Below, one piece after another: positions 29,957 to 31,458 of a stretch of 64,000 bases of DNA. The stretch covers positions 116,813-180,812 of the forward strand of contig CAVZJJ010000003.1 in NCBI GenBank assembly GCA_963775555.1, read 5' to 3'. How positions within the stretch are numbered: the stretch's first letter is position 1; each line of letters begins with the position of its first letter. The position numbers and the translations under genes are program-made. The notes under the pieces were generated by a model. That model did not search any database. It was not told the origin of the DNA and saw only the letters and a list, made by a program, of their open reading frames with translations. This stretch comes from an uncultured Bacteroidota bacterium. GTDB taxonomy: Bacteria > Bacteroidota > Bacteroidia > AKYH767-A > 2013-40CM-41-45.

Positions 29957-31458
29957 TATTCAAAAAATGAGTTGTCAAAAAGTTCGTTGTCTTCTTTTAA
30001 ATCTGTCGGTGGTGCGTCAATTTTTTCAGGCAATACTTTTACTGGCTTCCAAGTTTTTTCTTCAAGTTTTGGAGAAAGCGTTAATGATGTGTGTGGACTT
30101 ATTTTCAAATAAGGATATTCAACAGTAAATAAATTCACATGAGAAAAGTAATAACCAAAGAATCTGAAATAATTGAAAACAGCATTGTTGTTTTCTAATC
30201 TCTTCAGTCCTGACAAGTAAGCAGATTCAAATCTGCTTGTGTGATAACCTCCAGGATTTGTAAAACTCCAAGTTGGATTCAAAACCAAAAACCATTCATC
30301 AGAAATATTTAAGAAAGAACTCTTGAACGCAAGATGTCGGAAGCAAATAATGTGTCCTTCTTTTTTATTGTGCATTTCAAAAATCACGGACTTTGTTGAT
30401 TCATTTTTGCCTTTCCATCTTACTTGTTTCTGGTTAGGTACTTTTCGATTGGCGGCAAAACGGAAAATTTTACTCTTACCATACCATTCAATTTCTTTTA
30501 TTATACAAAACTCTGTAAGTGTGTTACGAAGCAAATGTTTGAAAACAATTTTGCTGGCTTCGCTTCCTTCGTAAAACTCTTTGCAATCAATAGGCGTGAT
30601 TGTTCCCTTATCTACAATTTTTCTGAACGGTTCTTTTTCGTCATACAGGTTTTTGAAAGTGTAAAGACAATTTTCATGTAGCAGCCAATCAAATGCTTTA
30701 CTCTCATGCTTTCTTAACGCTCTCTTTACATACTTTGCCTCTCTCATTGTCTTTATTGGCTTCTTGTTGATTGTAAATAAGTAGTCATTCAATTCAGCCA
30801 ATATTTTTTCTCTATCAATATCCAATTCTGCTTTGTAGAATTTTTCAGGGAAACTAATCGGTAAAAGGTTGGGAGAAATGTCTTCGGGTTTGTTATCCAA
30901 ATAACCGCCAACATATTCCTTTTTCCGCAATTCAATTTGAACATCAGAAAATTCTTGCTGATATATTTTTGCAAGTGTTTGAAGTTTAGGTGTTGAACTT
31001 ATGTCTTGGATCTTTTGAAGCAGAATCTCTCTATCAATTACATGGTCTTTGGTGTTGAAAGTAAAACCATCAGGAATAAGTTTTGCCAATTTACTGTCTT
31101 TGTATTTTTCTTTCTTTTCCGTTAGGATGTAGAAATAAATAACATCAAAATACTTATGTAGTTCGTGGCCGAAAAACTTCCCAAGCGTAGTTTCAATTTT
31201 AGAATAGTCGCTTGTTGCTGTGATTTGAAAAGCAACTCTGCTTTTAAAGTCAGCTAAGTCAATTGCAGGAAAATTTTTCTTCTGTGTTGAATTTAAGTTT
31301 TCAAGATTCAAGCCGAAGGTTTCATTCAAAACAGGAATGAGAAAACTTTCAGCATGTATGTTGATGTCGTATTTGTTTGCTGCATTAAAGCCCTCCACTT
31401 CCAAGACAAACCTTGCAGCATAAGTGTTGATTTTATTTATAAACTCTATCCGATTCAT
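29956..31458 (-). CDS. pAgo partner protein: N-terminal SMEK/PD-(D/E)XK-like domain fused to a presumed APAZ region
   Basis: 500 aa, immediately upstream of and translationally coupled to the short pAgo. Res 30-90 ([10 protein letters not shown]...FPAIDLAD...[17 protein letters not shown]) match my recollection of the SMEK-domain pattern and resemble a restriction-endonuclease-like core. No TIR (DVFISH-type) or SIR2 (GAG.S..GIP) motif is present. The APAZ assignment rests on size and context, not on a recognised motif. Confidence 0.55.
   Translation of the reverse strand: [500 protein letters not shown]

Follow-up and report, generated by a model that had tools for sequence, protein, structure and literature searches.

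The locus analysed here raises the question of what is delivered by a protein which is encoded next to a short prokaryotic Argonaute (pAgo) and carries an unusual head in front of its APAZ domain. A first-pass annotation of the window, i.e. the whole stretch of 64,000 nucleotides from an uncultured Bacteroidota bacterium, had read this head as a SMEK or restriction-endonuclease-like domain without the canonical Lys and had regarded its output activity as not predictable from known short-pAgo systems. The interval assigned to the head, 31069-31458, corresponds exactly to residues 1 to 130 of an open reading frame starting at 31458, and the peptide quoted for it is present. Translation of the codons also reproduces the residue numbers, with NIHAE ending at E37 and a 21-residue peptide leading from D67 to K87. 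The features of the module are as follows.

29956..31458, minus strand: gene of the SMEK-APAZ protein, 500 aa (open reading frame; SMEK head, linker and C-terminal APAZ)
30943..31458, minus strand: SMEK (Mrr-like) head, residues 1-172 (Pfam, NCBIfam, PDB 26bh, AF2 model)
31348-31350, minus strand: codon of E37 (translation)
31198..31260, minus strand: core signature D67-L-A-D70 ... Q78-I-T80 ... K87 (translation, conservation, secondary structure of the model)
30034..30768, minus strand: APAZ domain, about residues 231-475 (matches to PDB chains and PADLOC models)
28505..29956, minus strand: short pAgo, 483 aa, MID-PIWI (PADLOC pAgo_I, PDB relatives)

The identity of the head follows from two family models. 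Pfam SMEK_N (PF21941) aligns over its full profile (1-140) with residues 9-151 (E-value 4.8e-43, 146.8 bits, cut-off 27), and NCBIfam NF033859 SMEK_N aligns with residues 6-98 (E-value 1.3e-27, 95.5 bits, cut-off 30). Both scores are far above their thresholds and bear out the SMEK identity that had been proposed. The SMEK signature (E37, N54xN56, D67LxD70, Q78xT80, K87, T91) is complete in the protein. On these sequence matches the head can be filed as a SMEK domain with confidence.

The same annotation had seen neither a TIR nor a SIR2 domain in the head, which is in agreement with our searches. No Pfam family match of the SMEK-APAZ protein to TIR, SIR2 or DUF4365 was found at E≤0.1. The PADLOC models of SIR2-APAZ and TIR-APAZ align with residues ~241-405 only, which is the APAZ part, and the second PADLOC model of REase-APAZ proteins (PDLC02398, SPARDA-type) is likewise restricted to the APAZ part, up to residue ~475. 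With phmmer the DREN-APAZ/DUF4365-APAZ chains 9qbl_A, 9qbq_A and 9jsb_D of the PDB were retrieved at E-values of 1e-16 to 8e-16, again over residues 231-475 only. A profile match of the head to TIR, SIR2 or DREN, the outcome that would have placed it in one of these classes, was thus looked for and none was found; heads of these three classes are ruled out. As the models of the other classes match only there, residues ~240-475 represent the APAZ common to all of them, with the head as an exchanged module.

The pAgo matches PADLOC pAgo_I with an E-value of 2e-182, and its nearest solved structures are 9om4_B (the Argonaute of SPARHA, E 1e-74) and 9jsb_A (NbaAgo, E 3e-69). Its residues R195, K199 and K240 align with R183, K187 and K240 of NbaAgo, which form the RK pocket for the guide 5'-end, and this pocket is therefore intact; mutations of R183, K187 and K240 in NbaAgo abolish SPARDA activity. 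Judging from its nearest relatives, all of them short and inactive, and from Koopal et al., we assume the pAgo to be of the non-cleaving short type with a PIWI domain devoid of the DEDX tetrad.

The start codon of the pAgo and the stop codon of the SMEK-APAZ gene overlap by one nucleotide, an operon structure whose gene pairing recurs in related loci. SMEK-APAZ orthologues of 498-500 aa with 62-89% identity were found in seven Bacteroidota loci from genomes and metagenome-assembled genomes, and in all seven a pAgo of 483-484 aa is the next gene, either overlapping or separated by a gap of 3-4 nt, while the flanking genes are unrelated. Because the pairing is kept and the flanks differ, the conserved unit is a two-gene module. 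The PADLOC model Aga_REase-PNTD1-PNTD2 (PDLC02399) covers residues 1-476 of the SMEK-APAZ protein (E 6e-157). It also identifies nine out of ten cluster representatives of ~500 aa with a SMEK head as full-length SMEK-APAZ proteins, so proteins of this architecture form a well-populated family for which a model already exists. The system is almost certainly a SMEK(Mrr-like)-APAZ/short pAgo system of clade S2B.

The closest characterized relative is the system of Kordia jejudonensis, consisting of KjAgo and a SMEK/Mrr-APAZ protein. The PDB entry 26bh, named "Mrr domain from Kordia jejudonensis Mrr-APAZ pAgo", matches residues 2-172 with an E-value of 9e-55, and both heads are 57% identical over 171 residues. 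All signature residues, E, NxN, DLAD, QIT, K and T, are kept in both. The systems further agree in a SMEK-APAZ gene of ~500 aa followed by a short pAgo in a Bacteroidota host, with the full-length PADLOC model matching from end to end. In contrast to the Kordia system, the one reported here belongs to another species, differs in 43% of the head residues, is known from sequence alone and adjoins a Septu-like gene pair which is disrupted by an IS element.

The orthology to the Kordia system is our own observation; the biochemistry comes from the literature. SMEK-APAZ/pAgo has been placed in the short-pAgo clade S2B with Mrr-like effectors. According to the summaries of Kim et al. 2020 BBRC given by PMC10810196 and PMC12205087, the Kordia proteins form a heterodimer, the activity of which is described as RNA-guided cleavage of target DNA or as a weak collateral nuclease. 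One preprint, in which the system is named SPARMA, finds a resemblance between its AlphaFold dimer models and the filament interfaces of SPARDA. A literature search for a structure paper on 26bh or for a description of the SMEK active site found none. The view that the output of this head could not be predicted from known short-pAgo systems has to be given up in the light of the full-length PADLOC model, the reports of a guide-dependent nuclease in Kordia and the 57% identical head of 26bh, since this class is already filed (S2B, Mrr-like) with a nuclease activity reported. The locus represents a known, catalogued and partly characterized class and no new kind of system, and we therefore count it as a further member of that class.

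To what extent the head is related to restriction endonucleases is a separate matter. The AlphaFold (AF2) model of residues 1-175 has a pLDDT of 89.7 and predicts a helix at 36-48 (with E37), a short strand at 52-54, a strand at 68-70 (D67/D70), a strand at 75-80 (Q78, T80), a helix at 85-97 (K87, T91) and a strand at 106-111. The core signature accordingly comprises two predicted central strands and the beginning of the following helix. This predicted order of elements fits that of the restriction-endonuclease core (alpha-beta-beta-beta-alpha-beta). A Foldseek search of the head model against a PDB library without 26bh gave nothing at E≤1e-3; the top match, EcoO109I, is sub-significant (E 0.015, probability 0.77). 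Approximately 18 of the top 50 of these weak matches are PD-(D/E)xK nucleases, namely BamHI, OkrAI, BstYI, BbvCI, Can2, cap-snatching endonucleases, Avs3 and HerA-DUF. Against BFVD the probabilities range from 0.84 to 1.0 and the TM-scores from 0.35 to 0.48, but the E-values only from 0.017 to 0.07, and the top matches include a "Restriction endonuclease" and a "Mrr-like domain-containing protein". Trimming the model to the core (residues 28-128) lowered the pLDDT to 83.8, and Foldseek then returned unrelated folds only, at E≥1. Taken for themselves, these model-based fold tests lend weak support to a restriction-endonuclease fold, and the assignment is less secure than the labels given to the head would imply.

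Sequence profiles were also used. None of 46 SMEK heads matched Mrr_cat, Mrr_cat_2, DUF4365 or another Pfam nuclease family at E≤10, and a profile search of the PDB sequences returned 26bh alone, with Csm2 and others at E 0.3-0.9 representing noise. With hhalign the SMEK profile reached a probability of 0.05-0.1 against E. coli Mrr alone and of 0.1 against a profile of 24 EcoKMrr-type sequences, a narrow profile with ≥70% identity. As these values do not exceed 0.1 and the Mrr profile is narrow, a direct sequence link between SMEK and Mrr is not established. The head is therefore described here as Mrr-like or restriction-endonuclease-like from its motif layout, predicted topology, weak fold matches and the published and PDB labels, and it is not filed in Mrr_cat.

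The argument for an enzyme rests on the residues of the putative active site. An exhaustive search yielded 2,656 SMEK cluster representatives at E≤1e-3, and conservation was counted in a sample of 144 SMEK heads representing clusters at ≤50% identity. Q78 is kept in all 144 heads, D67 in 143, D70 in 140, E37 in 139, N56 in 137, and N54 and T91 in 134 each. Position 80 holds Thr in 139 and Ser in five of the 144 heads and Lys in none, while position 87 holds Lys in 142 and Arg in two. Altogether twelve polar residues are near-invariant across the sample, so the motif is no chance pattern. F134 and D142 are likewise conserved among SMEK heads, and N33 and N62 join N54 and N56 as invariant Asn residues.

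Together with the aligned layouts, these counts substantiate the proposal that E37 ... D67(xxD70) ... Q78-I-T80 echoes the E...D...QxK core of Mrr and DREN with a Thr in the place of the Lys. Since Lys was never found among the 144 heads, the Thr is a trait of the whole SMEK family and not a peculiarity of the gene at 29956..31458. A lack of conserved acidic residues among homologues had been named as an argument against an enzymatic head; the acidic residues are conserved across the SMEK heads, which speaks for an enzyme and against a scaffold. The candidate catalytic center would consist of E37 in a helix, D67 and D70 in strand 2, and Q78 and T80 in strand 3. As Thr fills the canonical Lys position in every homologue apart from the few with Ser, we infer a possible Lys source in K87, near the beginning of the helix that follows, and we give this substitution an even chance. 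The relocation of a catalytic residue to the helix after strand 3 has a precedent in the restriction-endonuclease superfamily, where an acidic residue has moved in Cfr10I and NgoMIV.

A comparison with other known systems puts the head into context. In Mrr-type enzymes (EcoKMrr, Pfam Mrr_cat) the linear order is the same and the spacing similar, E-(30/31)-D-(3/6)-D-(8/10)-Q-x-[K/T]; in the aligned fragment of EcoKMrr relatives the invariant residues are E29, D60, D66 and Q76-A-K78. The core order predicted for SMEK, with helix, three strands, helix and strand, also fits these enzymes. Unlike the Mrr-type enzymes, SMEK heads show no detectable similarity to them by sequence or profile, carry Thr for the Lys of QxK, and add invariant N54, N56, K87, T91 and D142 as well as flanking helices.

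SPARDA systems (DREN/DUF4365-APAZ; NbaSPARDA, XauSPARDA, TmuSPARDA) share with the module a homologous APAZ (E ~1e-16), a homologous pAgo (E 3e-69) in which the RK guide pocket agrees, and an N-terminal nuclease which probably belongs to the restriction-endonuclease superfamily and has a D...Qx(K/T) motif; the same logic of activation is expected. In contrast to SPARDA, the head belongs to another family without a match to DUF4365, and PDLC02398 covers the APAZ only. In the literature DREN is given an Hjc-like and SMEK a Mrr/AspBHI-like topology, and NbaDREN (D41/Q60/K62) has the canonical Lys in Q60-x-K62, whereas SMEK has Thr. SPARHA (HNH-APAZ; PDB 9OM4) is likewise a member of clade S2B and contains the nearest solved relative of the pAgo (E 1e-74), but its effector is an HNH nuclease of unrelated fold. 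SPARHA is activated by filaments, as the SMEK system may be too.

A further hint comes from the range of proteins in which the head occurs. The SMEK head nearly always forms the very N-terminus of the representatives, which are 240-1,800 aa long. Among 55 representatives scanned, it precedes a NACHT module in at least 16 and NB-ARC, nSTAND3 or AAA_16 modules in others, usually together with TPR arrays. Antiviral proteins of the STAND type carry their effector at this position, and it is as a rule switched on by oligomerization of the sensor. The same SMEK head thus occupies the effector slot of STAND defense proteins (NACHT/NB-ARC-TPR, Avs-like), which gives independent support to its role as an effector. 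Unlike in STAND proteins, the sensor of the module is composed of APAZ and pAgo, is guided by nucleic acid and has no NTPase.

These observations have to be weighed against other explanations. The head might be a catalytically dead restriction-endonuclease-like scaffold for oligomerization or DNA binding, with the toxic output coming from elsewhere. The Thr or Ser in the catalytic Lys position of all 144 homologues would be explained in this way, as would the missing sequence-profile link to active Mrr enzymes and the nuclease activity of the Kordia complex, which one of the two summarizing papers describes as weak. However, pseudo-enzymes normally lose their former catalytic residues, while E37, D67, D70, Q78, K87, N54, N56 and T91 are 93-100% conserved, and a scaffold would hardly be expected in the effector slot of STAND NTPases. 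The module moreover offers no alternative effector, given that only two genes are conserved and the pAgo appears to be of the non-cleaving type. A dead scaffold is in our opinion very unlikely. The conserved residues may instead serve an enzyme other than a non-specific DNase, for instance an RNase, a nickase, a structure-specific nuclease or an enzyme acting on nucleotides, in which QxT, N-x-N and K87 would provide a different chemistry. The non-canonical composition of the site with its extra invariant Asn residues (N33, N54, N56, N62) and the weakness of the fold matches point in this direction, and RNA is among the substrates of the related DREN effector. DNA cleavage has nevertheless been reported for the Kordia complex, as summarized in PMC10810196 and PMC12205087, and both the E...D...QxX layout and the order of strands agree with Mrr-type DNases; we regard such an enzyme as distinctly unlikely. 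Unlikely as well, though conceivable, is that SMEK heads form a separate restriction-endonuclease-like branch with a rebuilt site (no Lys in strand 3, K87 in the helix and an added Asn cluster), whose output in pAgo and STAND systems may depart from the indiscriminate DNase activity seen with DREN and HNH, e.g. by another substrate or by the need for a composite site that arises only between heads in a filament. If true, this would explain why the Kordia heterodimer has been described as weakly active.

The extent of the module may be questioned in addition. A PtuA-like ATPase (26708..28498) begins just 6 nt past the pAgo stop codon, and the same order with an ATPase of 593 aa was found on one independent contig, which could indicate a three-gene unit in which the ATPase works together with SMEK-APAZ and pAgo. 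But the ATPase follows the pAgo in none of the seven related loci, and the three-gene system is rejected for this reason. The ATPase furthermore matches the Septu PtuA and PDC-M01A models (E 9e-137 and 5e-65), the HNH gene that would be its partner lies just past the IS insertion, and according to Koopal et al. the APAZ protein is the sole protein specifically associated with short pAgos. A joint function of the three genes is extremely improbable.

The preferred reading is that the locus encodes a short-Argonaute defense module with an RNA-guided collateral nuclease which is activated by target DNA and switched on by oligomerization, and as a whole we hold this explanation to be probable. The APAZ part and the MID-PIWI pAgo would form a heterodimer, in which a small guide RNA, loaded into the RK-type 5'-end pocket of the pAgo, would direct the latter to complementary invader DNA. 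Formation of the duplex could then lead to pAgo-pAgo oligomerization or to a filament, by which the SMEK heads would be brought together for non-specific (collateral) DNA cleavage, and plasmid or phage might be stopped by abortive infection. A nuclease output of the SMEK head is likely in itself. For SPARDA and SPARHA the literature reports activation by filament formation with tetramerization of the nuclease domains, and the argument has been made that all short pAgos work in this way. By analogy, we lean towards a filament-type activation of the SMEK system too, with somewhat less confidence.

With this locus a further intact SMEK-APAZ/short-pAgo module is known, here from an uncultured Bacteroidota lineage. 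SMEK effectors are common, to judge from the roughly 2,650 cluster representatives at E≤1e-3, and they occur with pAgo partners as well as in STAND NTPases; their mechanism is the least published among the nuclease-type effectors of short pAgos. Throughout the family the textbook catalytic Lys is missing and a different invariant Lys is kept. How the QxT site cleaves, and whether a higher-order assembly is needed for it, is a question for the SMEK family and not one specific to this locus. Solving the SMEK site would round off our view of short-pAgo effectors and could yield a further programmable collateral nuclease for diagnostics.

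The surroundings of the pAgo module, which comprises the short prokaryotic Argonaute gene (pAgo) and the SMEK-APAZ gene, differ in base composition from the right-hand part of the window. Between approximately 20000 and 35000 the G+C content is 0.32-0.38, compared to 0.40-0.46 in the right-hand part (36-64 kb). This stretch contains the pAgo module, Septu-like genes, IS copies and several ORFs without a family, and resembles a defence or mobile island of low G+C. The features considered for the window are as follows.

18235-19017, minus strand: 260-aa ORF with an HsdM N-terminal domain, partial N6_Mtase match
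19981-21105: IS30-family element, copy 1; transposase ORF 19991..21043 (minus strand) with HTH_38 and rve domains
22569-22648 and 24534-24613: direct repeat of 80 nt, 83% identity
24699-25523, minus strand: HNH-domain gene (Pfam HNH, E 1.5e-4)
25623-26747: IS30-family element, copy 2; transposase ORF 25633..26685 (minus strand) with HTH_38 and rve domains
26708-28498, minus strand: PtuA-like ABC/AAA ATPase (PADLOC PDC-M01A, E 9e-137; PtuA, E 5e-65)
32145-33083, plus strand: 312-aa ORF, in divergent orientation to the SMEK-APAZ gene

The PtuA-like ATPase starts 6 nt past the pAgo stop, and a 593-aa version of it is found at the equivalent position on an independent contig with the same gene order around the pAgo module. 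The ATPase and the HNH-domain gene flank IS copy 2 on opposite sides, and together they look like a Septu-like pair that was interrupted by the IS insertion. As the IS end at 26747 falls within the ATPase ORF, the final ~13 codons of this ORF are IS-derived. The defence-model matches start at residue ~150; the additional N-terminal ~150 residues (28049-28498, minus strand, residues 1-150) matched no model in Pfam, NCBIfam or PADLOC.

Both copies of the IS30-family element are 1,125 bp long, with terminal inverted repeats GTTCAAGTAATAAGTGCAATTT / GTTCAACCAATAAGTGCAATTT, and their sequences are identical to each other, which suggests that the element transposed recently. The copies of the 80-nt repeat each lie within a small ORF (22497..22757 and 24442..24702), and these may be remnants of a further mobile element. 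The 260-aa ORF, which lies next to IS copy 1, covers only positions 3-123 of the 311 in the N6_Mtase profile; it is probably what is left of a type I methyltransferase gene after truncation or a frameshift.

The divergent 312-aa ORF has a counterpart at the equivalent position on the independent contig, and none of the Pfam, NCBIfam and PADLOC models matched it. Other neighbours are found in L003, a related locus from Chitinophagaceae (own coordinates).

L003 4101-5999, plus strand: 632-aa ORF upstream of the SMEK-APAZ gene (start 6001)

This ORF ends 2 nt from the SMEK-APAZ start, and its N-terminus, MKRITSIQLENFRAFY, is one we take to be typical of OLD/AAA-type ATPases. It is preceded by a 1,223-aa ORF, and the two may form an additional linked defence gene set.

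The SMEK head itself is widespread: a search at E<=1e-3 recovers it in 2,656 cluster representatives. Among representatives from outside the window (a set of 144, from clusters at <=50% identity), NACHT/NB-ARC/nSTAND3 and TPR proteins carry a fused SMEK head, and it occurs alongside PIN-TPR-GreABC-type modules in two representatives and alongside a methyltransferase domain in one.
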